Source of the DNA: a virus
Lineage: Duplodnaviria > Caudoviricetes
DNA length: 64,000 nt
IMG/VR virus record: IMGVR_UViG_3300010885_031309
Strand: one strand, 5' to 3'
Each line of letters starts with the position of its first letter. Within the stretch, counting starts at the first letter, position 1. The notes under the pieces are model-generated. The model was not told the DNA's origin, did no database searches, and worked only from the letters and a program-made list of their open reading frames with translations. Positions 1 through 62,694 of the stretch are shown in pieces. Both the position numbers and the translations under genes were made by a program.

Positions 1-2010
1 TTATACAATGTTAATTACATTTCCCATTCCACTATGGAAAGAGCATTGATAATATAAAGTACTAGGAGCATTCATTGGTACTGTAAAAGTTTGCGTTCCT
101 GTTTGTGATCCAGAAACTCCAGATGTGTAGGCAGCACCACCGTTACTAACTCTAATTACAAGAGGATGACTACCTCCGGTTGTATTAATAAATTTATAAG
201 TAAATCCTCTATATAGATATAGTATAGGATTTTCAGTATTGTCTGTTTCTATGCCTGGTCCAGAAAACACATATGAACTGAAGCCGCTTGCAGAAATTGA
301 CCAAGATAAATATCCCGGGTAAGCAGTAGTTTGAGTAGTTCCGTCAGCAAATTCTACGCCAGTAATGCCGTATACATAACTTGTAGCACTGCTGTCAAAT
401 GTAATATCGCCGCCTGCGGGCAATGTTATATTGCCATCCGTGCCAAATTTGTATTGTTTAGTATCTGCTTCAATTACTAAATTAGTAGCTGTTGTAGATA
501 TAGTTGTATTGCTGTTTTCAGCACCATACTCAACTGTAAACACAGTGCCAGAATTTGGTCTAGCTATATTCAAACCAAACCAACTGTTAAAGTTCCAATA
601 TGTTGCATCTTCGCTGACTAAACTACTAGCACCTTGACCGCCCGGTGCTTGTGTGCCTGCTGCCACAGAACCCGCATCACTGCCAGTCCATTTCAATACG
701 AAATTAGGATCCGCAAATGGAATTACCAACTGTGGGTTATCCGCTTTTAAAATTCTAAATGTAAATGGATTAGCAGTAGAGTCTGCCACGGTTCCTGTAA
801 CTGTTTCTGTTGTAGTAGTAACTGGATTGTTTAATATAATATTTCCTGGAGCAGTTAAGTCACCATCTGTGCCAAAACGCCATACCTGTTGATCGCCGCC
901 ATTGTTATCATTGGCACCAATCTCAACACCATATGCCGGAGCTCCGCCGTATGCGGTTGGGCGTTGAAGAACATAGTTGTAGTCGTCACCAAAGTACAAG
1001 TCTGTGCCATTATCACCAGCAGATCGCATGATATGTAAGTGAGTTGGGCCACCAGGTTCTGGTAGAGCGCCAAACTCTAATCCGCCACGAGCAGTGTTCA
1101 TAGTAACAACACCATCAGTGCCTACGCTAACTGAATATGTCGGTCCTTCTGAACTTGTGTTTGTTATTTCGTTTGTTGGTACTCCTTGACTATAACCTTG
1201 ACTTTGTACCCAGCTTTCTGTAGCATAACCTGTTAGAACTGGAATAGCTGGTTTGTTAGACAAATCATTGTAACTACCACTTGTTGCCACTGTGGCAAAA
1301 CTTGGCTTGTCAGTTACTGCGGTCCAACCAACAGTTGTTAAGAATCCACTGTCGTTGGATAATTGACTGGTCTGTGTTGGTATAGTTGGCTTGTTTATTA
1401 AATCATTATAATCGCCACTTACGCCTGCGGTTGACACTGTGGGAATAGTTGGCTTATTTGTTAAGTCAGTATAATTGCCACTGAATAATGCTGGCTTATC
1501 AGTTAAATCTGCATAAGCACCTGAAAATAATGCTGGTCTATCTATTAAGTCGTTATAACTACCACTTGTACCCGCTGTTGATACAGTTGGTATACTTGGC
1601 TTGTCAGTTAAATCATTATAAGAAGTAACTCCGGGCGGGGATTCCCAACTTAAAGTTGTGCCGCTATAGTATAAGTATCCAGGTAAATTTACTGATACTT
1701 CCGGAACATCTAAATCAAAGATACTAGTTGGTATACTTGGCTTGTCAGTTAAATCATTATAAGAAGTAACACCGCCGCCGAGTTCGCCAGTAGAACTTAT
1801 TACACCCTGACCATTGATAACAATAGTTGTTCCATCTACTTTTACTCCACCTAATATTGTAGTACTAGCAGTAGGTAATCTATATTGATTAGAGTCGCTT
1901 AGTGTGTATAATTCACTGAAATTGTTGTTGATCTTTTGAAAAGCAGTGCGTAACGGGTCACCCTGTCTGTCATTAGCCTGTGTTCCAATGTTTATCGTCT
2001 GCTGTGCCAT
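1..2010 (-). CDS. Tail fibre / virion structural protein with SYNDLTDKP-type repeats and C-terminal cupredoxin-like domain
   Basis: 669-aa ORF ending with TAA at 1-3. N-terminus MAQQTINIG...GDPLRTAFQKINNNFSELY is typical of T4-like phage fibres. Has ~8 (S)Y(N/A/T)DL(T/I)(D/N)KP repeats and a C-terminal HP...YYQCSFHSGM motif. Confidence 0.8.
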   Translation of the reverse strand: MAQQTINIGTQANDRQGDPLRTAFQKINNNFSELYTLSDSNQYRLPTASTTILGGVKVDGTTIVINGQGVISSTGELGGGVTSYNDLTDKPSIPTSIFDLDVPEVSVNLPGYLYYSGTTLSWESPPGVTSYNDLTDKPSIPTVSTAGTSGSYNDLIDRPALFSGAYADLTDKPALFSGNYTDLTNKPTIPTVSTAGVSGDYNDLINKPTIPTQTSQLSNDSGFLTTVGWTAVTDKPSFATVATSGSYNDLSNKPAIPVLTGYATESWVQSQGYSQGVPTNEITNTSSEGPTYSVSVGTDGVVTMNTARGGLEFGALPEPGGPTHLHIMRSAGDNGTDLYFGDDYNYVLQRPTAYGGAPAYGVEIGANDNNGGDQQVWRFGTDGDLTAPGNIILNNPVTTTTETVTGTVADSTANPFTFRILKADNPQLVIPFADPNFVLKWTGSDAGSVAAGTQAPGGQGASSLVSEDATYWNFNSWFGLNIARPNSGTVFTVEYGAENSNTTISTTATNLVIEADTKQYKFGTDGNITLPAGGDITFDSSATSYVYGITGVEFADGTTQTTAYPGYLSWSISASGFSSYVFSGPGIETDNTENPILYLYRGFTYKFINTTGGSHPLVIRVSNGGAAYTSGVSGSQTGTQTFTVPMNAPSTLYYQCSFHSGMGNVINIV
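1370..1775 (-). repeat. Intragenic coding repeats (YNDLTDKP family), including a ~44-nt exact duplicate
   Basis: gttggtatacttggcttgtcagttaaatcattataagaagtaac occurs at ~1586 and ~1727; degenerate copies lie between 1370 and 1560. Confidence 0.85.
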
Positions 2011-8100: not shown

Positions 8101-11100
8101 TTATATTGCGGGAGGAGCAGTCTCTGGGCCAACTGCTGGCGGTGCACCCACTGGAGCAGTAACTTCTGGAGAGATACCTGGCATCTGCTCTTGACCCTCT
8201 GGAGGAATATTTTCTGCCGTTTCGGTGTCACTTTCAATGTCACTAGTGCTTAGTCCAATACTACGCAAATCTGTGCCCTTTGCTGTTTTTTCTTCGTCTT
8301 CTGGTTTACTATGCTCTTCATGCCATAACTTCTCGTTCTTCTTTATTTCTTCTTGACTTAGGCCCAAAAATCTTTCCATTGCAAATCTAGTAGATATGTA
8401 TGGTAGCTGTGCCACTGAATTAAACACATTTACTCTGACTTGATCAATTTCACTTTGACGATACGCTGCGAAATTTTGAGGGGGGTTAAATTTTAAATCA
8501 AATAAACCAGCGTCTATATTGAATCCACGCCAGCGTAAGAATAACTTGAACTCTTCATTCAATTTGCGAGCAATGTAACCCTGCAAACGCTCACAATATT
8601 GATTGAAACGATACTCTTGTATTAGTGCAGTTCCTACTTTTCCGTCTACTAATGGTCGCTCACTATCTTCTGGACCAGTTGGTAGATAACTACTTGGTAC
8701 ACGCAATCCTCGTGCAAGTCTGTTGTTGAAGTATCTAAGATCATCTATTTCCCCTAGATTGCTATTTTTCGTAAATACGCCAACGCTCAGGGCAAAAGTA
8801 TGATAATCATGATATATTTCATCGCCGTCAATTGTCAACGTGCCAACTGAGATCTCTTCTTCTAACCACTCAAGGGCAGCTACTCGGTGATTGTGCACGC
8901 TTTCTTTCACACGAAAGTCTTTCCATGACTTATATCCAAATTGTTGCACTAGTGAACGTCTGATGTTTCCTGGAGTGAACCCTTCTTCAACCTTCCAGTT
9001 ACGAACTTGTTTATCTTTGTTCAGTTCAACTAACTTATCTCGTAGAGATGACTTGTTCAATTCAGCAGCGATATTGTCAGCAGTTACTTCATGCGTAGTT
9101 TTTCCCTTGACCATATCAATAACAAACTTCAGCATGTCATGTGTATACTCAACTCGCTGTCTATCACTGTGCTTCTTCTTGCGCTCTTTGCCGCGCTCGT
9201 CGCTCCAATTGATGTAGTTCCATTCTCTGGTTTGATATGCACGTTGTTCACGAAGTTTCTCGGTCCACCCTGCACTCTGCTGCTGACAAACCCATGCATG
9301 GTATTCTTCATCAGTGCGCATTTTTTCTAGTTTTCGTGATGAGGCAATTTTGAATGCATCACGCGAATTTTGTGCTCTAGATTCACGATCATCTTCAGAT
9401 AGAGATTCAATATATTTTTTTATCGAGGCGCTCATCTTGTCCGTTATGAGCTGGCGTTCTTCATCAGTAAGATTGCTCCAGAACTGTCTAAGACCATCGA
9501 CAAAGTTTTCTTTTTGTTCAGGTGTTGTGTTTTCCCATCGTTTTTTTTGCGCTATTGAATTATTCTTGCAAATTTTCCTATATTCATTTATATTATTTTC
9601 TTTGATAATTTGAATTCGCTGTGTGTTGTGGTCAGCGTGATACTTGATATGGTCACTGAATGACATCCAGCATAGATTTTGCGGATCATTGTTGAATCTA
9701 TTGAAGTCTTTATGATGTCTGACTTCATACAATCCATTACTGGTGGACGAATCATGAACATGATAACACACGAGGGTATCTTTTAGATAGTCAGCGACTG
9801 TTCGGTGAGTAAACTTCCACTCTTTTGCCTCATTGTCGTAATACTGTTCATATTCATTTTTGCTTTTTCCAAGATATTCTTTCTTTCTATATAGAGGAAT
9901 CATACTGTCGCCCACAACAAATTCGTCGGCGCGCTTGAATTCTTGTTCATATACTGGAAATTTATGTTCCGGTGTACAGATAATATGCTCACCGTTATCA
10001 AGAGTAATCTTTAGCACTTTCGCACGAGGCTTAGTTACGCCGGCCCATGTAATTAGTCCAGGGACTACTTTTCCAGTAAGTGGCTCACAACTGTATGTCC
10101 ATAGCTGTTTGCCAGTTTTCATTTCACTTTCAATTTCAGCAATAGATAGTTCTCTGCCATCCAATAACGAAACTCTAGTATCCATGCTAAAACATCCGCC
10201 CGGCAGTGTAGTAACATCACTACCACGACCGTCTGCTGTTACTGGAAAGAAGTAGTCCTCATTGATTGAGTTTTTAATGAAGATTCCAGAATCAATCGCA
10301 AAAGTATGATAGTTGTGCCATCTTTCGGTTCCATCAATAGTTATAGTGCCGGTATCACGATTGCTAACTCGCTCAATACTTACTACGCGATGGTTAAACT
10401 GTTCAATTGAGCTAACGAAATGTTTCCAATTTTTATATCCGAATTGTGTAATTAGACGATTAATTTTCTTTTCGCCAAATTGATTCAAATTAATTTTATT
10501 TTGCGTAGCACTATCACTCATCTCAGAGTTGTGCTGTCTTACAAGTTCAAGTAGCTTTTCATCGCTTGAACACAAATCAATAATTTTCTTTTTGTTTTTA
10601 CCGTGAGCTTTGACTTTTTCTACTACTAACTGAAGCATGTCAAATGTCATCGTGAGCTTTTGGTTATTAAACTTTACTCTGTTTTCTAAATTTTTATTAA
10701 GTTGCTGGGCAAAAGCTGGATTATTTTTAATATATTCTTTTCTGGACTTACTTGCATTTATTGAATATTTTGCTGCATGTTCTGAGTCATTATTGCGAAG
10801 CCACACTGCTTTAGTCTGCGCTGCACGAATGCGGTACAGAGCAATATGACGCTCATGCTCGGTCATTATATTCCAGTTCTGTTTTACAGTTTCTGAAATT
10901 TTACCAGTAAGCTCAGCACGATATTCTTCTGTCATGGTTTTCCAAAAATCAGATTCCTGTGCAGCGTGATACAGTATATGATCCTTCTTGTTCATGTATG
11001 TTAGATTGCGCGGATCATTATTGAATCTGTTATAATCACGGTGATGTATTACTGTTTTTTCTGCGCCAATATTTTCTGAAAGATATGTATACTCTTGATG

Positions 11101-12555
11101 TTTTTCAATCTTTCTAAAAAACTCGCCTACCATGCGATGAGTCCACACCCACTCGCGAGTTTCATGATCCCATACTTGTTGATATTCGCTTGATTTTTCA
11201 CCACTGATTTTTTCGTTTCTCACATTGAACGCTATCAGACTATCTTCTGCTGTCAAATTTTGTGCTTCAACAAATCCTTTGCCGAATACTGGAATTTTGT
11301 GATCAGGTGTGCATGTTAAAGTTTTTCCATTATCTAGTGTTACTTTGATAACTTCGGTGTTCTTGCGTGTAATACCTGCCCAGTTAATTACACCTGGTAC
11401 TACTTTACCAGTGACTGGATCACAACTATAGGTCCAGTTTTCTTTACCAGATTCAAACTCACGAATTAACTCCTGTAATTCCAGAGTTCGTCCATCCAAT
11501 AGTGGAATTCGTGTACTTAAATCCAAGCAAAGTGGATTATATGTAGCATCCATTACACTCTGTCCGCCATGAACACTTGGTATTCTTCGCTGATGAATTT
11601 CGTCTTTAATTCTATTAACGAATGCCATAGCCAAGTGACTTGGCATATTTCCAACATCTATTTTGAATATTCTGCGCTCTGGTGCCCGTTGAACACGATA
11701 TATTAGAATAGCGTCTTCTAATAATTCTTTCTGCTTATAAACTTTGAATATATTTTCAAGTATACTTTGTCCAAATGGCCAATAACGGTCAAGTCCTTCA
11801 GTCAAGCTAAGATGCACTACATGCTTAGCATCTATAGCAGCTTCGTTAATACCCAAGCTAAATCTACTGCCCGTGGTTCCATAAGGTTCGTTTGGAACAG
11901 TATAGCTGTATGGAGCACTGTACCCAGCGGTAGGTGGCTGTGCTTGAAAGTCAGTAGTAGTCTTTTCAGCAATACTTAAATTTTGTAAATTTGGATTAAT
12001 ATCTTTGATTACATACTGCTCAGGCTTCTTGCCCTCACTCTCGTTGACAATAACTTTGACGACCTTTGTCATGTCAGTCCAATACAGTTTGAAATTTTCT
12101 GGGTCACGAACAAAAACCTGATCACCGTACTTTACTGTGTTGCGAAATATCTTAAATATTCTGGTGTCCAACTCATTCAATTTACACCACTGCTGTAATT
12201 GCTTTACTACTAGTTCAACTTCAGTAGTAGTGGGATCATCATTAAACTGTATCTCAAACGGCGTATTGTTGTGTTCATTCATCTGTGTACTAAATTCAGA
12301 AAGAATGTCCAAACATGCGTTTATTTCAGGATCCACATCCATCATTTCATACTGATTGTATCGCTCTATGCGATTTGGATGTCCTGTATAGACTTCTGGC
12401 AGTCTGCTTTGATAGTTTCTAAAAGCAAAATCATTGTTCCAGCCGCCAGTTGGTTCTTTATTCATACCAGCGTTCCATGAGCCGGTATTACTGTTCATAC
12501 CGCTTATTGGACTTAGTGAACCGTGTTGATTTGTGAATTTTCGTTTATATGACAT
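8101..12555 (-). CDS. gp20: Portal protein (T4 gp20 family) precursor with two inteins; spliced product ~587 aa
   Basis: Exteins carry EDAILIYRVQRAPERRIFKIDVGNMP, EDYFFP...LPGG and NLGEIDDLRYFNNRLARGLRVPSSYL. 1484 - 420 - 477 = 587 aa. Confidence 0.95.
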   Translation of the reverse strand: MSYKRKFTNQHGSLSPISGMNSNTGSWNAGMNKEPTGGWNNDFAFRNYQSRLPEVYTGHPNRIERYNQYEMMDVDPEINACLDILSEFSTQMNEHNNTPFEIQFNDDPTTTEVELVVKQLQQWCKLNELDTRIFKIFRNTVKYGDQVFVRDPENFKLYWTDMTKVVKVIVNESEGKKPEQYVIKDINPNLQNLSIAEKTTTDFQAQPPTAGYSAPYSYTVPNEPYGTTGSRFSLGINEAAIDAKHVVHLSLTEGLDRYWPFGQSILENIFKVYKQKELLEDAILIYRVQRAPERRIFKIDVGNMPSHLAMAFVNRIKDEIHQRRIPSVHGGQSVMDATYNPLCLDLSTRIPLLDGRTLELQELIREFESGKENWTYSCDPVTGKVVPGVINWAGITRKNTEVIKVTLDNGKTLTCTPDHKIPVFGKGFVEAQNLTAEDSLIAFNVRNEKISGEKSSEYQQVWDHETREWVWTHRMVGEFFRKIEKHQEYTYLSENIGAEKTVIHHRDYNRFNNDPRNLTYMNKKDHILYHAAQESDFWKTMTEEYRAELTGKISETVKQNWNIMTEHERHIALYRIRAAQTKAVWLRNNDSEHAAKYSINASKSRKEYIKNNPAFAQQLNKNLENRVKFNNQKLTMTFDMLQLVVEKVKAHGKNKKKIIDLCSSDEKLLELVRQHNSEMSDSATQNKINLNQFGEKKINRLITQFGYKNWKHFVSSIEQFNHRVVSIERVSNRDTGTITIDGTERWHNYHTFAIDSGIFIKNSINEDYFFPVTADGRGSDVTTLPGGCFSMDTRVSLLDGRELSIAEIESEMKTGKQLWTYSCEPLTGKVVPGLITWAGVTKPRAKVLKITLDNGEHIICTPEHKFPVYEQEFKRADEFVVGDSMIPLYRKKEYLGKSKNEYEQYYDNEAKEWKFTHRTVADYLKDTLVCYHVHDSSTSNGLYEVRHHKDFNRFNNDPQNLCWMSFSDHIKYHADHNTQRIQIIKENNINEYRKICKNNSIAQKKRWENTTPEQKENFVDGLRQFWSNLTDEERQLITDKMSASIKKYIESLSEDDRESRAQNSRDAFKIASSRKLEKMRTDEEYHAWVCQQQSAGWTEKLREQRAYQTREWNYINWSDERGKERKKKHSDRQRVEYTHDMLKFVIDMVKGKTTHEVTADNIAAELNKSSLRDKLVELNKDKQVRNWKVEEGFTPGNIRRSLVQQFGYKSWKDFRVKESVHNHRVAALEWLEEEISVGTLTIDGDEIYHDYHTFALSVGVFTKNSNLGEIDDLRYFNNRLARGLRVPSSYLPTGPEDSERPLVDGKVGTALIQEYRFNQYCERLQGYIARKLNEEFKLFLRWRGFNIDAGLFDLKFNPPQNFAAYRQSEIDQVRVNVFNSVAQLPYISTRFAMERFLGLSQEEIKKNEKLWHEEHSKPEDEEKTAKGTDLRSIGLSTSDIESDTETAENIPPEGQEQMPGISPEVTAPVGAPPAVGPETAPPAI
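8764..10194 (-). mobile_element. Portal intein 2 (477 aa, HNH endonuclease)
   Basis: Junctions LPGG|CFSMDTRV and GVFTKN|SNLGE; block B ICTPEHK; HNH motif RHHKDFNRFNNDPQNL...DHIKYH; +1 residue Ser. Confidence 0.92.
10270..11529 (-). mobile_element. Portal intein 1 (420 aa, HNH endonuclease)
   Basis: Junctions YNPL|CLDLSTRI and GIFIKN|SINED; block B TCTPDHK; HNH motif IHHRDYNRFNNDPRNL...DHILYH; +1 residue Ser. Confidence 0.92.
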
Positions 12556-15560: not shown

Positions 15561-16385
15561 ATGACCAACAATCCACTACAGCAATATTTTCGCAGACCAG
15601 CAATTTATATTAAGCTTCCGAGTCAAAACAAATATTATGATCAAAGCGTCATTGAACCAACTCAAACAGGAGAATTACCAGTCTATCCAATGACTGCACT
15701 GGATGAAATAACCAGTAAGACTCCAGACGCAGTGTTTAACGGACACGCAGTAGTAGATATTATTCATAGCTGCATGCCAAATATTAAAAACGCATGGGAG
15801 ATCAACAGTGTTGATCTGGACGCTATTCTTATTGCAATCAAAGTAGCCAGCACTGGTGAAAAAATGGAGATTGGAACGGTCTGTCCAAATTGCAGCACTG
15901 ATGCAACATACGATATCAGTCTAATTCAAGTGTTAAGTCAACAGCAGAATGTTGACTATGAAAAAACATTAAAAATCAGAGAATTGGAAATTAAGTTCAA
16001 ACCACTTTCATTTGCAGAAGCAAACAAAAACAATCTGGCACAGTTTGAATTACAAAAATTCCTACGAGACAGTCAATCTTATGAAGATAGTCCTGAAAAG
16101 GAACAAACAATACGCGATACTATCACCAAGTTGAATTCTCTTTTTTCAGAGATTATTAGTGGAACTGTAGAGTACATTAAAACTCCAGAATCTACTGTAC
16201 ACGAGAGAGAATTTATTAATGAGTTTATGAATAACTGTGATAGAAATACCAACTTAGCGATTCGCGAATTCAGTGTTCAATTGCGAAACGAAAATCAATT
16301 GAAACCACTGAATATAAAATGCATGCATTGCTCACATGAGTACACACAGCAATTAATATTGAATATCACTGATTTTTTCGCTTAA
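15561..16385 (+). CDS. gp26: Baseplate hub assembly / tail chaperone protein (T4 gp26-like)
   Basis: NPLQQYFRRPAIYIKLPS, ELPVYPMTALDEI, DLDAILIAIKVAS, two CxxC pairs (CPNC, CMHC) and terminal DFF. Confidence 0.8.
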   Translation: MTNNPLQQYFRRPAIYIKLPSQNKYYDQSVIEPTQTGELPVYPMTALDEITSKTPDAVFNGHAVVDIIHSCMPNIKNAWEINSVDLDAILIAIKVASTGEKMEIGTVCPNCSTDATYDISLIQVLSQQQNVDYEKTLKIRELEIKFKPLSFAEANKNNLAQFELQKFLRDSQSYEDSPEKEQTIRDTITKLNSLFSEIISGTVEYIKTPESTVHEREFINEFMNNCDRNTNLAIREFSVQLRNENQLKPLNIKCMHCSHEYTQQLILNITDFFA

Positions 16386-16422
16386 AGCTTCTATCATTGG
16401 ATCATGCCGAAATGAAGAAGCT
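16373..16422 (+). promoter_or_regulatory. Candidate -1 ribosomal frameshift signal (T TTT TTC, 6-nt spacer, hairpin)
   Basis: GAT TTT TTC gives an in-frame X XXY YYZ heptamer. Hairpin agcttc(16386-91)/gaagct(16417-22) with inner tcatt/aatga and gg/cc. Confidence 0.65.
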
Positions 16423-16609
16423 GGGCGAAGTCATGTGGCATGAAGCACTTGGCATCAAGGCTCAAGCAATTAAAATGGCTTGGTATACCCGAGGTAGCAT
16501 GCAATATGTAGATGTACTTAATTTGAGCAAAGACGAATTGGATCAGCTAAGTAAATTAGTTGATTCCAATATGGAAACTACTAAGAAGACCAAATTACCA
16601 TTCTTCTAA
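16379..16609 (+). CDS. gp51: gp51-like chaperone C-terminal module; probably made as a -1 frameshift extension of the gp26-like ORF
   Basis: The -1 frame is open from 16373 (after TGA at 16370) to TAA at 16607-16609; no RBS before TTG 16397 or ATG 16412. Encodes WYTRGSMQYVDVLNLSKDELDQL. Confidence 0.65.
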   Translation, partial: RLKLLSLDHAEMKKLGEVMWHEALGIKAQAIKMAWYTRGSMQYVDVLNLSKDELDQLSKLVDSNMETTKKTKLPFF

Positions 16610-16633
16610 TTTAGAATGGGCTGCAGCCCATTC

Positions 16634-16670
16634 GCCAGCAGCCTATCGGCGTGCTGGCTTTTTTCTTTTT
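16634..16670 (+). terminator. Intrinsic terminator after the gp26/gp51 unit
   Basis: gccagca-gcctatcggcg-tgctggc-ttttttcttttt. Confidence 0.75.
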
Positions 16671-16694
16671 GTAATCTCTCTCTGTTATATATTA

Positions 16695-16990
16695 ATTAGA
16701 TGTATTTCCGTGATTTATGACAGCCATATATGTGATGCGTATTTCAGTGAGATATCTTAGTGACATATTAGTGATGTCTTAGTTATATCTCTCAATAATG
16801 CGTGTGTGATGTATTTCAGTTATGTCTTAGTGATTCATATGAATTAGTAGTCTGATATCTGTACAGATGTATTTCAGTGATATCAGTAAAAACTAAATTA
16901 GTTGAAAAGAAGTCTGTTTGTGTCAGTCGGAGAGCGCAGCGAGAAGAACTGACACAAACATGGCTGTTGAGCAAAGCGAGACAGCCAACT
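16695..16990. repeat. Direct-repeat and palindrome cluster (candidate replication origin)
   Basis: Four copies of gatgtatttc(a/c)gt(g/t)a near 16699, 16734, 16808 and 16866. Palindromes attcatatgaat, atctgtacagat and aactaaattagtt. 13-bp perfect inverted repeat tgtttgtgtcagt (16915-27) / actgacacaaaca (16948-60). Confidence 0.6.
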
Positions 16991-17004
16991 GACTGTAATT
17001 ATTT

Positions 17005-17345
17005 GATAAAATATCAGGGTCCTCCCCCTTGTTCTTTGAAGACAGCTATTTTTCGCTGTGGGAAGAACGTTCGTTGAACCACCAAAACCCTTTAATTTTT
17101 TGCCCGTTGATCTGTCAGGCGCAGTAGAGCCTTGCCTAAGGGCGGGAGCATCGGTTCCGAATCTATTGAGTACATCCATACTCTATTCGGCACTCCCCAC
17201 TAGTTTACCCACTGTGATCTTAGTATTGTCCGATCTTCAACAGTGCTTCGCCGTGAGCAGTAAAGGCTGTACTCACAATGTTACTAGTTATTTTAGACAG
17301 GTCTGTTGTTTGACCTGTGTTAGTCTATCTTTTTCATAGACCCAT
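17005..17345 (-). ncRNA. Candidate large structured non-coding RNA, family unknown
   Basis: GC-richer than its flanks, no convincing ORF, at least 7 nested or adjacent helices. The closing helix GGGAGUG/UGCUCCC needs G-U pairs that form only on the minus strand. Confidence 0.5.
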
Positions 17346-17363
17346 TATTTCACAGTAACAATC

Positions 17364-17609
17364 TTACAGTGAAAGTTTTTTTTCTATTATTATTACTGTT
17401 CCGTCCTTTTTTATAACTCTGATAAATGATTTGTCTTGTGGGCTAATTTTTTTAGCTTTAATCTTACTCTTTGGTTTTCCAGAGTAGGCATTTTCTGATT
17501 GCTTTTTTAGTTTTTTTGCTCGTCTCCAACGCAGAATATCTCTTCTATCACAGTGCATATCATTCTTTCTTTTCTGAAATGTATTTAAGTCTGTTTTTAT
17601 TGCTGGCAA
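17364..17609 (-). CDS. Small basic hypothetical protein
   Basis: 81-aa Lys/Arg-rich ORF overlapping the end of the resolvase gene; the true start may be the internal ATG (MHCDRR...). Confidence 0.45.
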   Translation of the reverse strand: MPAIKTDLNTFQKRKNDMHCDRRDILRWRRAKKLKKQSENAYSGKPKSKIKAKKISPQDKSFIRVIKKDGTVIIIEKKLSL

Positions 17610-18075
17610 AAAAAATATCCATGTCGCTTATTATCCATGCGTTGTAGTTTGGGCTAGTATAAACAGTATGATTTTTTAGATCCCAATCGTATTTTTTTTC
17701 TACTGCAATGAATTTTCCAACACGAGTTATTTTCATAAACAAACAATTGACACTGTTATCATCACCACTAGTTACTAGTTGATTTAGCCAGATCTCAAGT
17801 TGTTTGCACTCATTACTTAAAAGTAAATTAAAAGGAAACTTGGAATAAGACTTGCATTCACAATTAAGAAGATTGAAGCTTTCTGGTACAATAATGTCGC
17901 CTCTTGTATGACGAATTTGTTCCGCTGTCAGTGAAGATTTGCGACTAATATTTTTACCTCCAACATAAGAGCCACTACCACTTAAATTTCTTATAAATGA
18001 TTCATTGTATGTATTGGAAAGATACTTTGCTACTTCTCTTTCCCAACTTGACCCTTTTGTTTTTTGCTTGCTCAT
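17560..18075 (-). CDS. Holliday junction resolvase (Hjc-like PD-(D/E)xK)
   Basis: KTKGSSWEREVAKYL...SGS...GDIIVP...CECKSY; directly downstream of gp46. Confidence 0.75.
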   Translation of the reverse strand: MSKQKTKGSSWEREVAKYLSNTYNESFIRNLSGSGSYVGGKNISRKSSLTAEQIRHTRGDIIVPESFNLLNCECKSYSKFPFNLLLSNECKQLEIWLNQLVTSGDDNSVNCLFMKITRVGKFIAVEKKYDWDLKNHTVYTSPNYNAWIISDMDIFFASNKNRLKYISEKKE

Positions 18076-18114
18076 TGTGTTTACTTATTCCAGTAATGTG
18101 TGCTGGAAAAAAAA

Positions 18115-21100
18115 CTATTCTTCCAATTCCTTCAAACTTGTAAACCCATTTTCCTTTACTACTTTTACTGTGTTATTAACTCTGTTGGTCAACTCATCGC
18201 GATGACTTACTAGCCATACCGATTTGTTTCTATTTCTGCTAAAGTCTTTCAGTAGTGCAAGACCGTTCTCAATGCCCACGGTGTCCATGCCCGAGTCCAT
18301 TAGTTCATCAATAAACATTACATTAACTGATTGATAAAGATTTTCCCACACATCGCGAAATGCAAATGACAGTCCTAAAATAACTCTAGTGCGTTCACCT
18401 CTGCTAAGTGAGTCAAAATCTAGCTCTCGTCCAAGTTCTGTAATTTCAACACTTAAATCATTTTGAAATACCACGCGATGTGGTAATCCTATGCGATCCA
18501 AGTAATGCGACAGTCTGTTATTCAAATATGACAAATTCTGTTCAATGATTTTTTTGCGAACAAATGACTTTTTGTTAGTTAATAGATCCAACAAATAGTC
18601 TTGGTGTTGTAGTAATCGGGTCAGTCTGTTGATCTCACTAAAGTCAACTGTTTGTATAGCATTAGTTTGCATTTCTGCGATTTGTTCAGCATACGGATCT
18701 TCTTCACTGTGTTTCTTTTGTATTTGATCCAATAGTGTTTGTACGCGACTGCTGTGCTTAAATGCCGCCTCTTCAGTGTCATAGTGTGTTTTTGGCTGCG
18801 GACCCAATACTAGAGTGCTGTTCTCTAACAGTTGCTCAGCATATGGGTCAGTTTCGCTTAGCTTGTCTTCTATTTGCTTGCTGATACGATCTACTTCACT
18901 ACTGTGCTTAATAGCTTCAGCGTGTGTGTTGTAGTGTGTAGTGGGCTTATTGCCAACAATCACTTCGCTATTTACTAGCTTGTTCCATAATTCATGTGCT
19001 GCGGCATAGCCTTCATTTGTCTCTACTAGAAGTTTTCGTTTCTTCTCTAATACCTCGGTGTGCTTACTATCGTGAAACTCTTGTCCACACGCATAGCAAC
19101 GATGCTGTTCTAGCTCATGTACTTCTTCTTGTAGCTTTTGTGCTGACTTAGCTAGCTTTTCGCCGTCGCTCTTTGCTCGTTGTAATTCTTTAGCCCAGAT
19201 TTCACGCTCAGATACTTTTGTATTGTGAATTGCTAGTTCAGAGTGTGCTGATAATTCGGCAGCAATATCAATTTTGGTAAGCTTAGTCAAGCTACTCTGT
19301 AGAGCGGCCACTTCTTTGTCTAGCTTTTGTCTCCATGCAGTCTGTCTAGCCAAAACGGCATCATAGCGATCAAGCTTTTCTTTGTTAGAGTTCCATACGG
19401 CCAAATCTTTGTGTGCCGCTAATTCGGCGCCAATATCCACAAGTTGCAATTGGTCGTATTCTGTTACTAACTTAAGCAAGTCTTCGTCTCGCTTGGCAAT
19501 CCATAGACGCTGACGCTTCTTTAGACTGTCAATCTGTTCAGTAATACGCTTGTTTGCCGCCTCAACTCCATTTACACGAAACTCTTCTCGCTGAATGTCT
19601 TCTTTTGTAGTCTTGTTTAGTTCTTTGATAGCATCTGCTTTTTCGCTTAGCAGAGTGATTCCAAGTAGTTGTTCAATGATCGTGCGTTGATCACTGACAC
19701 GCATACTTAGAAACGGTGTAGTGTAGCTATTGAGACCAACAATATGTTGAAACATATCACTGGACATACCCAGAATACGCTCAATTGCTTGTTGAGTTTC
19801 TTTGTTTTCACCCTGTGCGTCATTGTCATCACTTGATTGTTGTTTGTTATTGACATAGAACTTTAGCACATTTGGTTTACGACCACGAACAATCTGATAA
19901 TCATTATCATTAACAGTGAATTCAACAACGGCATGCATTTGTTTGCCATTTGTTCTATTAATCAAATTGTCTTTCTTAATTTGATTAATAGGGCTACCGA
20001 ATAGTGCATAGCTTAGACCCTGCAATATAGTGGTATTGTGAGTTACTACATAATTATCAGTGACATATAAATGATCTTTGTGATCTATAGCAATACATTG
20101 ACATTCGGAGTTGTCAATTTTTTGAATATCAGATATTTGTAGACGAAGTTGATCAGCATATTGATAATCTGCGCTTATCCTGTCAAGTTTTCTTGACAAC
20201 GAAAATAATTTTTTTGGATTATGATAGCGAATTAAAACTATATATGCTTTTTTACCTTCTTTTTTCTCATTCAAATAAGTAAAGCGTGGTATTTTTTCTC
20301 TTATTCTGGCAATTCCACCGATACTACGAATTAAGTCGGTTACATCCATGGCAAGTTGCTTGCTACTAGAAGAAAAAGATATAGATCCGGTTCTGTCAAC
20401 GGTGCCGTCTGTATCTAATAATCCACGAAGCAATTCTAATTTTTGAGAAACGCTAATATTTTTGTAAATTTCTGGTATAAATTTTTCTTCGCTGTTTACA
20501 TTTAATTTTAAATCAATAAGACGCGACCTTAATGGGTGAGTAATTTTTTTGGGATTATTTTTTCTGTGATTCATCACAACTCTATATGAAATTTTAGGAC
20601 GAGTTGTTGACTGTGATTGTCTCAATGAGCAATCAATTAATTGTAGTTCATCGTTTACTCGTGTGAGTATTTCTTGATCCACAGATGTTATACCAACAGA
20701 TGATTTTAAATGTCCGTCTCCGAGTAACGCTCCCAAAGTATAACAAGAAATAGGAACAGATACATTCTCTGTATCTCTAGGAGTATACAGAGGGACATAC
20801 AAAAAGTTAAACGCCTTTTTCTTTTGAGAATTTACATTTAGTAGTTCAATCAGTTCAAGTGTTGTCAGAATTCTTGTATGATTGATATCTGTTTTATTGC
20901 GAAACAGATGACTGTATACATTCCATAAATGATCTTCGCTTGCCTCACATGTACGACCGTCTCTGAATGTAAATTTGTAAACGGATTTAATTCCTTGTGG
21001 ATATACTCCAATCACTTTGGCTAATGAGCCATCATGAGCAATAACGCTATCTCCAACACTGATATCTCGCATAAGAGTCCATCCGTGAGGAGTTAATATA

Positions 21101-21273
21101 TTACTAGTTAGTGGTTGTGCTTTGCCAGTACCATTCCTTGAGCCATCACCGCCCAAATCTAAGTTTTCGCCTAGAATCAGTGTAAGATCCTTGCGATCAA
21201 AATTTATTTCCTGTTCTACATTTCCAATGCTTAGAAAATTTTTAAGTCGCAGTGTTTTTAGTTTTATACTCAT
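18115..21273 (-). CDS. gp46: Recombination ATPase gp46/SbcC/Rad50 precursor with intein; spliced product ~690 aa
   Basis: LKNFLSIGN, Walker A NGTGK|T, Q-loop region, zinc hook CYAC, signature LSRGE, Walker B MFIDE, H-loop VSH. Confidence 0.95.
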   Translation of the reverse strand: MSIKLKTLRLKNFLSIGNVEQEINFDRKDLTLILGENLDLGGDGSRNGTGKAQPLTSNILTPHGWTLMRDISVGDSVIAHDGSLAKVIGVYPQGIKSVYKFTFRDGRTCEASEDHLWNVYSHLFRNKTDINHTRILTTLELIELLNVNSQKKKAFNFLYVPLYTPRDTENVSVPISCYTLGALLGDGHLKSSVGITSVDQEILTRVNDELQLIDCSLRQSQSTTRPKISYRVVMNHRKNNPKKITHPLRSRLIDLKLNVNSEEKFIPEIYKNISVSQKLELLRGLLDTDGTVDRTGSISFSSSSKQLAMDVTDLIRSIGGIARIREKIPRFTYLNEKKEGKKAYIVLIRYHNPKKLFSLSRKLDRISADYQYADQLRLQISDIQKIDNSECQCIAIDHKDHLYVTDNYVVTHNTTILQGLSYALFGSPINQIKKDNLINRTNGKQMHAVVEFTVNDNDYQIVRGRKPNVLKFYVNNKQQSSDDNDAQGENKETQQAIERILGMSSDMFQHIVGLNSYTTPFLSMRVSDQRTIIEQLLGITLLSEKADAIKELNKTTKEDIQREEFRVNGVEAANKRITEQIDSLKKRQRLWIAKRDEDLLKLVTEYDQLQLVDIGAELAAHKDLAVWNSNKEKLDRYDAVLARQTAWRQKLDKEVAALQSSLTKLTKIDIAAELSAHSELAIHNTKVSEREIWAKELQRAKSDGEKLAKSAQKLQEEVHELEQHRCYACGQEFHDSKHTEVLEKKRKLLVETNEGYAAAHELWNKLVNSEVIVGNKPTTHYNTHAEAIKHSSEVDRISKQIEDKLSETDPYAEQLLENSTLVLGPQPKTHYDTEEAAFKHSSRVQTLLDQIQKKHSEEDPYAEQIAEMQTNAIQTVDFSEINRLTRLLQHQDYLLDLLTNKKSFVRKKIIEQNLSYLNNRLSHYLDRIGLPHRVVFQNDLSVEITELGRELDFDSLSRGERTRVILGLSFAFRDVWENLYQSVNVMFIDELMDSGMDTVGIENGLALLKDFSRNRNKSVWLVSHRDELTNRVNNTVKVVKENGFTSLKELEE
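20035..21120 (-). mobile_element. Class-3 (Ala1, W-C-T) intein with LAGLIDADG endonuclease in the gp46 Walker A motif (362 aa)
   Basis: Junctions GTGK|AQPLTS and VVTHN|TTIL. Trp in block B (EDHLW), Cys in block F (ECQCIAI), Thr in block G. LAGLIDADG motifs LGALLGDG and LRGLLDTDG. Confidence 0.9.
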
Positions 21274-22295
21274 AAATTTTTATAGATTTCTAGGAGAAGT
21301 CGTTTGTCAAATGCACCTTCAGATAATTGTTGTATTTGCTCTTGAATTATACTATCTACGGACTCAAACTTCATGTTTGAGTAGTCCGTATCATCTTGCT
21401 CAAGATCCACTTTAGACGGAATTAGTGACATTTCTCGTAGTTGATATTTTGGAAGTAATTGTTCGCGAATGAAATTACTTTCCTCATAGGTAATATCAAC
21501 ATCTAAATTAATTCGCACATGCATGTCTTTTTGTAGTAGAGTTTCATCAGTAAGAATTTCACTTAGCTTGTAGATGCGAAATCTTGGTTGATCGGGCCAA
21601 CTTAGAAATACGGGTTCAGACCCCCACTTTAATATCATCATACCGCGATCATCGTCATTTACATCGCTGTAGTTATGTGGAAATGTGTTTCCAATATAAG
21701 TTATATTTTTCCGAAACTGTCGCTTGTGAAAATGCCCACTAAAAACTTTCTCAAAGCCGGAAAGATGTTCCGATTGTAGTTCACCGTGATCTGGCATTTC
21801 AACCTGTGCGTTCATGTAAAAATGTGGAAGTTCAAAATGACCGAAAAGATACTTGCCTTCATATTTGCTGATCTGTTTCCAATCATCTTGTACTAACCAC
21901 GGAGCAATTACTACATCATCATAGTGTGCAAAATCATTAATGATTTTAACTCTAGACAGGTGTTTTGCCCATTCTACACTATGAACATCTCTGCGATCAC
22001 GATAGTAGAGATCGTGGTTTCCTGGTATAAAGTATACCTGAGAGAATGACTCGTTCAATCGTTCCAATGCTCTTAATCCAAACTGTAGAGTTTGTATATT
22101 AATGCTGGCACGATGATGATTCCAATCTCCCAAAAAGAAACAAACATCACAGTCGTGTTTTTTGGCCGTATCTATAAACCAATTAATATAATTGGTACAA
22201 TCCAAATTGTGTACTACACTGTTGCTCTTGAGGCCCCAGTGAATGTCCGTGCATACGGCCGCTTTATTAAATAATTTGCTCATCGCGTCAATCAT
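21270..22295 (-). CDS. gp47: Recombination nuclease gp47/SbcD/Mre11
   Basis: Metallophosphoesterase motifs TDIHWG, LGDWNH, PGNHD, GHFE and SGHFH. Start is likely ATG 22295 or 22283 rather than 22310. Confidence 0.93.
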   Translation of the reverse strand: MIDAMSKLFNKAAVCTDIHWGLKSNSVVHNLDCTNYINWFIDTAKKHDCDVCFFLGDWNHHRASINIQTLQFGLRALERLNESFSQVYFIPGNHDLYYRDRRDVHSVEWAKHLSRVKIINDFAHYDDVVIAPWLVQDDWKQISKYEGKYLFGHFELPHFYMNAQVEMPDHGELQSEHLSGFEKVFSGHFHKRQFRKNITYIGNTFPHNYSDVNDDDRGMMILKWGSEPVFLSWPDQPRFRIYKLSEILTDETLLQKDMHVRINLDVDITYEESNFIREQLLPKYQLREMSLIPSKVDLEQDDTDYSNMKFESVDSIIQEQIQQLSEGAFDKRLLLEIYKNL

Positions 22296-22343
22296 ACACG
22301 ATTGTAACATCTGAACACAATTTTTTTGGTTAGATACAATTAT

Positions 22344-62302: not shown

Positions 62303-62332
62303 TTGACTTCTGAAGTCAGGTTGTATTAGAAT
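62303..62332 (+). promoter_or_regulatory. Sigma70-like promoter of the tmRNA gene
   Basis: TTGACT-18 nt-TAGAAT. Confidence 0.6.
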
Positions 62333-62339
62333 AAATACT

Positions 62340-62600
62340 TGATTGCTGTAGAGACCGAAAGGAAAGAAGCAAAGAGAAACGTGTTCCGGACCCGGGGGCA
62401 GTACCCGGCATCTCCACCTAAGTGTATTGGGTATATTTAGGTGGGGATGACACAGTTTCGACGGGGTAAAGAGTAACGGCGCGGACAGCACGGTAGATGA
62501 CGACCGTAAATCGCATAAAATTATAATTGCAAATAACGAGCAATTCCTGATGGCTGCCTAAACCGGCTATCGCGGTAGGACTTACCGGGCAACAGAAAAA
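62340..62600 (+). ncRNA. ssrA: Circularly permuted (two-piece) tmRNA, tag (A)ANNEQFLMAA
   Basis: The 3' acceptor piece (T-arm CCGGG-GGCAGTA-CCCGG, then CATCTCC-ACC, 62392-62418) precedes the 5' GGGGATG (62443), with a G3-U70 pair. Tag frame gca aat aac gag caa ttc ctg atg gct gcc taa at 62529-62561. Ends are approximate. Confidence 0.9.
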
Positions 62601-62603
62601 ACC

Positions 62604-62635
62604 TAAATAGCACCTTCGGGTGCTATTTATTTTTG
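62604..62635 (+). terminator. Intrinsic terminator of tmRNA
   Basis: taaatagcacc-ttcg-ggtgctattta followed by a T-run. Confidence 0.85.
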
Positions 62636-62694
62636 TGTCTTTCTTTACTAGTAATCTAAGATTATTCATAAATACTGTGAGGGAGATATATATT

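Follow-up and report, generated by a model that had tools for sequence, protein, structure and literature searches.

Large, intricately folded and conserved RNAs are rare, and those whose function has been found are mostly ribozymes, ribonucleoprotein cores or self-assembling machines. Other phage and plasmid RNAs act at origins of replication, with ColE1 RNA II and the R-loop RNAs of T4 oriF and oriG being origin-priming transcripts. GOLLD and ROOL, two large ornate RNAs that occur in phages and prophages, were seen by cryo-EM as homo-oligomers, and symmetric kissing contacts are seen in the assemblies of GOLLD, ROOL and OLE (10.1101/2024.12.08.627333). The Polynucleobacter-1 RNA motif (RF01718) has been described from Burkholderiales and from fresh water and estuary samples (Weinberg et al. 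2010, PMC2864571).

The DNA analysed here is a stretch of 64 kb (the window) from an uncultured freshwater T4-like jumbo phage. An initial annotation, made from the sequence alone, had proposed a multi-domain non-coding RNA on the minus strand behind the genes gp47, gp46 and a resolvase-like nuclease, a proposal now borne out by conservation and covariation among 14 distinct homologues. The element, running from 17345 to 17017 on the minus strand, is very probably a genuine new family of structured RNA and a non-coding RNA gene, and will be referred to as the type-1 RNA. As judged from sequence comparisons, the family is restricted to one lineage of T4-like jumbo phages, uncultured and from fresh water. 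No description of it was found in a literature search, and the element was unmatched by the 4227 models of Rfam 15 (including GOLLD, ROOL, HEARO, OLE, raiA, group I and II introns, RNase P, 6S, tmRNA and Y RNA), so that the family remains as unrecognized as it had been at first reading. Permissive searches of positions 16300-17700 with Rfam at E values up to 10 returned three chance-level matches to snoRNA and frameshift models, all outside the element, and the homologous loci L012 and L018 had no Rfam match.

Genomic context

The stretch is present in DNA runs of freshwater and aquaculture metagenomes. Encoded on the minus strand of the window are a portal gene in which domain calls identified intein-splicing and HNH domains (8101-12555), a 957-aa gene listed between the portal gene and gp47, gp47 itself (21270-22310) and gp46 (18115-21273). 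The gp46 gene contains a LAGLIDADG/Hint intein at approximately residues 56-410, a segment missing from the gp46 of relatives. The last conserved gene of the gp47-gp46 operon encodes a PDDEXK_15 resolvase-like nuclease (17560-18075, minus strand; Pfam PF24608, E 2e-21), which was found in synteny at all loci. Between this gene and a gp26/gp51-type hub gene that converges on the operon from the plus strand (15561-16385) lie an ORF for a basic protein of 64 aa (17364-17558, minus strand), the type-1 RNA element, two hairpins and an AT-rich iteron-like array. The 64-aa gene is directly upstream of the RNA, which starts approximately 20 nt past its stop codon on the same strand. All type-1 loci have in common the order gp47, gp46, nuclease, (64-aa gene), RNA, two hairpins, a converging small ORF and the hub gene, indicating that the RNA has a fixed genomic place.

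The 64-aa protein is rich in Lys and Arg and belongs to no Pfam family. Only five relatives were present among 5.8 billion proteins, all of them at type-1 loci, and the gene is missing from many type-1 loci. RNA gene calling on the window gave a single gene, also the only match of the whole window to Rfam at gathering scores, a tmRNA (62325-62652, plus strand) of the betaproteobacterial two-piece/permuted type with the tag peptide ANNEQFLMAA, which is a hint of a betaproteobacterial host.

Conservation, strand and coding potential

The RNA core in its long form occupies 17017-17345 on the minus strand (approximately 330 nt including a variable 5' hairpin, H1), where a conserved block with covariation is shared with loci L004-L025 and L029. 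Contigs from other metagenomes span 17020-17320 with scattered substitutions. Conservation starts just upstream of H1 and ends abruptly past GGGGGAGGA at 17020. As had been noted from the window sequence, the element is richer in G+C than its flanks (0.43-0.475 versus 0.31-0.36). Its single-sequence fold was more stable than those of shuffled sequences on both strands, with z = -3.4 for the minus strand and -2.9 for the plus strand. The RNA was also more conserved than the neighbouring nuclease gene, with 92 % nucleotide identity to L004 as compared to 59 % for the gene (48 % for the protein), and 77 % identity to L008 as compared to 60 % for the gene.

Assignment to the minus strand follows from the G-U pairs. 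The stem GGGAGUG/UGCUCCC had been singled out in the initial annotation as having G-U pairs on this strand only, and these pairs turn into C-G and A-U in L004 (GGGAGCA/UGCUCCC). In addition, a hand tally of base pairs contained 50 G-U cells, positions at which the other strand would have A-C mismatches.

The element does not encode a protein, in agreement with the earlier view that it holds no credible one. For both 93-aa ORFs in this region, the frames are broken outside the closest relatives, substitutions fall about equally on the three codon positions without a third-position bias, and Pfam gave no match. A decayed protein gene would be in keeping with the plus-strand frame of the 93-aa ORF at 17058-17339, which is open in the closest relatives, but this frame is broken in all more distant homologues and the even spread of substitutions argues against such a history. 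A second way of doing without an RNA is a fold of single-stranded DNA, such as a priming or packaging signal. Covariation with tolerance of G-T pairs cannot on its own tell RNA from single-stranded DNA, and mini-hairpin DNA motifs adjoin the element, but we know of no precedent in dsDNA T4-like phages for a multi-junction fold of 300 nt in single-stranded DNA. Taken together, these readings without an RNA are highly improbable.

A riboswitch or 5' leader was rejected because at all loci the genes that come next are convergent and lie on the other strand, leaving no gene downstream on the RNA strand. The Shine-Dalgarno-like GGGGGAGGA is the 3' strand of the proposed helix P7 (see below), and the mini-ORFs and short ORFs behind it differ among relatives.

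Secondary structure and covariation

The fold derived from the alignments consists of about ten helices, invariant loops and junctions, and likely at least one pseudoknot. The helices listed in the initial annotation were all present where it had placed them and, with one exception, are kept in homologues by compensatory changes. The exception is the ACUAGU/ACUAGU pair (17199/17283), whose 6 bp are not kept; an invariant UAG/CUA core alone is kept, which with a shifting fourth pair could form a putative helix.

All of the following parts are on the minus strand and are given in 5' to 3' order. The variable hairpin H1 (17323-17341, GUCUAU/AUAGAC) has U-A to C-G and G-C to G-U changes in L004-L007, and its stem is wholly replaced in L008 (GCAUUGU/ACAAUGC) and L012 (ACAUGA/UCAUGU). 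Hairpin P1 (17297-17318, ACAGGUC/GACCUGU) has a G-C/A-U exchange and an invariant loop, AAACAA. Hairpin P2 (17253-17276) contains a 2-nt bulge, with changes on both sides in five of its eight pairs and conserved flanks (AACUAG.AACGUU and GGAG.AAG). The outer and inner stems of P3 (17210-17245), which enclose an invariant 12-nt loop, GGACAAUACUAA, were 100 % paired with five of seven pairs changed on both sides. The P4 domain starts with three stacked helices, P4a-b-c (17144-17197), which are found only in the long form and have compensatory changes at half of their pairs (9 of 18). Together these helices combine ccgaat/attcgg with an inner gagta/tactc, closed by GGGAGUG/UGCUCCC, and they contain a conserved loop, UAUGGAU. 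Hairpin P4d follows (17129-17143), its GCC/GGC stem becoming GUC/GAC in L004 and GCA/UGC in L009-11. The 9-nt loop of P4d, CUUAGGCAA, presents a quasi-palindrome, CUUAGG, which is CCUAGG in L006.

In the 3' half, hairpin P5 (17102-17120, GCCUG/CGGGC) is preceded by an invariant UACUGCG and has a conserved loop, ACAGAUYAA, and two of four pairs changed on both sides. A near-invariant block, GGUG-SUUC-NN-CGAACGUUCU, occupies 17064-17083, and within it is an 8-nt palindrome, GAACGUUC (17065-17072). All five pairs of hairpin P8 (17042-17059, ACAGC/GCUGU, loop GAAAAAUA) were changed on both sides. The 3' end of the core (17020-17035) comprises GAAC at 17031-17034, the putative 3' strand of a pseudoknot, and GGGAGGA at 17020-17026. 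The latter segment can pair with UCUUCCC at 17060-17066 to form P7, a plausible helix that was 90 % paired and had one-sided changes only. A putative junction helix, UACUG/YGGUG, likewise had one-sided changes only. For the pseudoknot, the candidate pairing is between SUUC at 17076-17079 and GAAS, in which G or C at 17079 covaries with C or G at 17031 (GC in five and CG in nine sequences). This covariation supports a proposed 4-bp pseudoknot across P7 and P8 and comes from one split between clades. P7, the junction helix and the pseudoknot are each assessed from few events, the alignment having 14 distinct and partly mosaic sequences. Long invariant stretches are unpaired in the fold, namely the P3 loop, UACUGCG, ACAGAUYAA, the block from GGUG to CGAACGUUCU with its palindrome, and the P8 loop.

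Covariance models were built for the two domains. For the 5' domain (P1, P2 and P3; model R1, from an alignment of 12 distinct sequences), 96.1 % of cells were paired as compared to 32-49 % when the 3' partners were slid by 1-3 columns, 11 of 19 pairs were changed on both sides as compared to 0-4 in the slid versions, and the covariation score was 0.549 as compared to a maximum of 0.195 in controls. None of 500 shuffles reached the observed paired percentage or covariation score. For the 3' domain, the pairs that RNAalifold predicted from MAFFT alignments were poor and in part contradicted each other, and the structure for the second model, R2 (junction helix UACUG/YGGUG, P5, P7 and P8), was therefore supplied by hand. 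With this structure, 92.3 % of cells were paired (37-66 % in slid versions) and the score was 0.388 (controls 0.132 or lower). Both domain models together had compensatory changes at 18 of the 40 pairs scored by the tool. For the long form, RNAalifold on eight sequences recovered 58 pairs, among them those of the whole P4 domain; 18 of the 58 are compensatory. The hand tally, which was fitted to the model, has 73 pairs with 33 compensatory and 728 of 743 cells canonical. A helix from the single-sequence fold, UUAGGC/GCCUGA, was rejected as it is displaced by the covarying hairpins P4d and P5.

Distribution and natural variants

Homologues were gathered through conserved DNA words, through contigs that encode relatives of the 64-aa protein and through a nuclease profile. 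The resulting set consists of 24 loci with 14 distinct sequences, all from uncultured freshwater T4-like jumbo phages. The 23-nt pattern derived from the near-invariant block was present at 16 IMG/VR loci. Among 185,579 representative prokaryotic genomes of GTDB, the same pattern had six matches, which extend for only about 30 nt and are at chance level. JGI metagenome contigs contained no match to an exact 20-mer and one locus matching the degenerate pattern. GenBank phages gave no nucleotide match to the type-1 region, and both RNA types described here are missing from PA5oct and SCTP-2, the phages with the nearest cultured nuclease homologues, in which the gene order also differs.

Two forms of the RNA were distinguished. 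The long form of approximately 310 nt, present in the window, L004-L008 and L009-L011, carries the three-helix P4a-c and hairpin P4d. In the compact form of approximately 260 nt (L012, L017, L018, L020 and L016/L023), a hairpin of 4-5 bp replaces the P4 domain. Where the RNA is of the compact form, it is preceded by a non-coding spacer of 100-170 nt that begins behind the nuclease gene and contains a TAAAATA-like word common to these loci. In L016 (RNA gene at 614-889, minus strand) and L023, the P5 loop carries a hairpin insertion of approximately 20 nt. Locus L013 (4876-5163, plus strand) combines a strongly divergent 5' half with a 3' domain that is nearly identical to those of L009-11, L016, L020 and L023, which indicates that the RNA gene is mosaic.

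Repeats were also observed at some loci. In L011 (2975-3075, minus strand), L016 and L023, the place of the 64-aa gene between nuclease and RNA is taken by two tandem units of 33 nt (GTTCGAAC..GAGATAAAG.GGTCGATCTAC), with CACTAAAATAAAAC preceding the units. Within the RNA, paired identical short boxes were not a feature of the type-1 family, since direct repeats of at least 7 nt were at no consistent position in the 14 sequences; CUCUACUGC is present twice in L005/L006 only.

Transcription and the downstream region

Two conserved hairpins follow the RNA on the same strand (16962-16986 and 16915-16960), with loops CUCGCUNNGCUC. At all type-1 loci their stems covary and their loops are conserved. 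The second hairpin has a 13-bp stem and is directly followed by a U-rich tail, GACUUCUUUUC (16904-16914, minus strand). A consensus scanner for intrinsic terminators did not call this hairpin because its loop is long. Since UCUUUU comes next to the hairpin in most type-1 loci, the transcript may terminate near 16904. Sigma-70-like matches in 16300-18200 were at chance frequency (5 as compared to a mean of 5.9), and the only one just upstream of the RNA, 17373-17344, was rejected as its promoter because it would place the transcription start within H1, a covarying hairpin. In the window's clade, the RNA thus had no convincing promoter of its own. From this arrangement, co-transcription with the gp47-gp46-nuclease operon is plausible, the type-1 RNA probably being transcribed as the last part of a gp47-gp46-nuclease(-64 aa) transcript that would end at the second hairpin and its U-rich tail.

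The same arrangement raises the question of whether the element is simply a cis-acting part of the 3' UTR, a tail that protects the mRNA of the recombination operon or directs its processing or termination with no function in trans. The start just behind the last gene's stop codon on the same strand, the terminator-like hairpins and the lack of a convincing promoter in the window's clade would all fit. However, some 300 nt with invariant loops, a probable pseudoknot and a modular periphery go well beyond what a protective hairpin requires, conservation is higher in the RNA than in the genes that it would protect, and in the compact form it is set apart from the nuclease gene by non-coding DNA. 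A purely cis-acting role is therefore judged unlikely.

On the opposite strand, the hairpin loops read GAGCGAAGCGAG and contain the mini-hairpin motif GCGNAGC, which was present within the 64-kb window at the RNA locus only. GCGNAGC is a very stable mini-hairpin DNA motif that has been reported from G4-type phage priming sites, RSF1010 ssiA and N4 promoters (PMC13037366). Beyond the hairpins is the AT-rich iteron-like array (16699-16890), composed of GATGTATTTCAGTGAT and TCTTAGTGA units. The array is missing from all relatives but one near-identical strain, in which the repeat number differs. The array of this strain (run X3) differs by a 13-nt insertion and several short indels, suggesting that the array is young and unstable.

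These features invite an explanation in which the transcript enters an origin-like region and primes or activates replication. Transcription would proceed towards the two hairpins and the iterons in this phage, the opposite strand of the hairpin loops carries a motif reported at priming sites (PMC13037366), such a hairpin follows the RNA both here and at the loci of the second RNA type described below, and an RNA-DNA hybrid would be more likely to persist with the G-rich 3' end, GGGGGAGGA. The priming idea is nevertheless weakened by the lack of conservation of the iterons in relatives. Moreover, relative to the RNA, the hairpin motif points in opposite directions at the loci of the two types, the second type has no G-rich 3' end, and local changes in GC skew just track the direction of genes. 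We also know of no need for elaborate folds in the T4 origin RNAs. By analogy with known priming systems an origin-associated role is conceivable, but on this evidence distinctly unlikely.

A second structured RNA at the same position

A different conserved structured element of approximately 365 nt, designated type 2, was found at 77 of 80 further nuclease loci (L026-L105), for example at 2360-2740 on the plus strand of L035. It follows the nuclease gene immediately and is encoded on the same strand, contains abundant covarying stems and has no Rfam match and no nucleotide match among GenBank phages. One of the 80 loci, L029 on the contig of L020, is type 1. Locus L040 (2295-3425), which falls inside a type-1 clade of the nuclease tree, lacks both RNAs; its nuclease gene adjoins a 376-aa ORF of the opposite strand, and the RNA has apparently been lost or the locus rearranged. 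Type-2 elements are often preceded by the word ATAAAAAT. This word resembles the T4 late promoter, TATAAATA.

The two types share a setting, each being placed after the PDDEXK nuclease gene and facing the converging gp26-like hub gene, and both are large multi-helix RNAs unmatched in Rfam with a GCGAAGC-type hairpin downstream. At type-2 loci this hairpin motif (for example L035, 2780-2830) has the inverted orientation relative to the RNA. They differ in the order of helices and conserved loops, and no similarity was detected by sequence or by the 5'-domain model. Type-1 sequence profiles (nhmmer) found no type-2 locus, and the type-2 profile matched 77 loci, none of them type 1. R1 found nothing at E values up to 1 in 67 sources, which were mostly type-2 loci and also included L001-L003, L030 and L040 without a type-2 element. 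A maximum-likelihood tree of the nuclease cleanly separated the two RNA types, with all 56 type-2 rows in one group (support 98/99) and the type-1 rows on the remaining deep branches.

Type 1 might still be a strongly diverged member of the type-2 class rather than a separate family. The identical genomic position and strand, the GCGAAGC-type hairpins behind both RNAs and the common short words GGAGUAAG, UAAAC, GCGAAC and ACAGAU are consistent with shared descent. These words are not colinear, however, and set beside the different helix and loop order and the failure of the type-1 profiles, the 5'-domain model R1 and the type-2 profile to detect the other type, they leave a common class doubtful.

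Proposed function

The best explanation of these data, to which we give about even chances, is that the type-1 element is an uncatalogued non-coding RNA, probably made at the end of an operon transcript, that would act in trans through its three-dimensional shape. The RNA would most likely bind a protein or small partner, or assemble with itself; base-pairing with mRNAs or control of a downstream gene is less likely than action through shape. Taken alone, the claim that it acts in trans by binding a partner or itself is somewhat short of even. This reading is favoured because the invariant unpaired segments, the likely pseudoknot and the exchangeable P4 domain point to a function of the 3D fold; invariant unpaired segments together with a swappable periphery are features of functional RNAs with a tertiary fold. 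In the 64-kb window, sites that resemble the P3 loop or CGAACGUUCUUCC, the two longest invariant segments, or that could pair with them were not in excess, and an antisense-type regulator within the window was rejected for want of extra complementary sites.

A fold of this kind might alternatively serve self-cleavage or other catalysis. In its size, its multi-helix core with a putative pseudoknot and its invariant unpaired nucleotides, the RNA is similar to large ribozymes, but no ribozyme or intron model of Rfam matched at E values up to 10, and a ribozyme is considered improbable. The element interrupts no gene and is therefore not an intron.

More speculatively, the place behind the Mre11/Rad50-like and resolvase-like genes may be a dedicated 'RNA slot' throughout a lineage of giant phages, occupied by at least two unrelated classes of large structured RNA with the same job, although we regard this as an outside chance. 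That job could be done on the phage machinery for recombination and replication, with the RNA as its cofactor or regulator. Another option, by analogy with the cages of GOLLD and ROOL, is that it could consist of an RNA-only assembly through GAACGUUC and the CUUAGG loop.

The type-1 RNA represents a new class of large RNA in abundant uncultured giant phages of lakes, with a fixed place beside genes of DNA recombination. The second, apparently unrelated large RNA at the same place in sister phages amounts to a natural swap experiment on phage RNA function, and the compact (260 nt) and long (310 nt) forms are natural variants for structural work.

Comparison with known RNAs

Similarity to the origin-priming transcripts ColE1 RNA II and T4 oriF/oriG consists of the presumed direction of type-1 transcription, towards an origin-like region, and a G-rich segment near the 3' end. 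In the type-1 phages, by contrast, the origin-like repeats lack conservation, and in sequence the RNAs are unrelated.

The Polynucleobacter-1 motif has in common with type 1 a freshwater origin, and the betaproteobacterial-type tmRNA of the phage hints at a similar host range. The RF01718 model (141 positions, gathering score 37 bits) had no match in 16300-17700 at E values up to 10, and none of five whole phage records (four type-1 and one type-2) had a match at E values up to 1.

GOLLD and ROOL are larger (approximately 580-800 nt, as compared to 260-330 nt for type 1), and their models do not match the element. Unlike them, type 1 is not located beside tRNA islands. Type 1 and these RNAs are alike in being phage-borne, in having elaborate folds with conserved loops and a variable peripheral domain, and in coming partly from lake metagenomes. 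The single-stranded palindromes of type 1, GAACGUUC and the CUUAGG loop, belong to the kind of word through which GOLLD and ROOL form kissing contacts between molecules. With CUUAGGCAA changing to CCUAGG in L006, they are reminiscent of such contacts and provide a lead, rather than a finding, as to how the type-1 RNA might assemble with itself.
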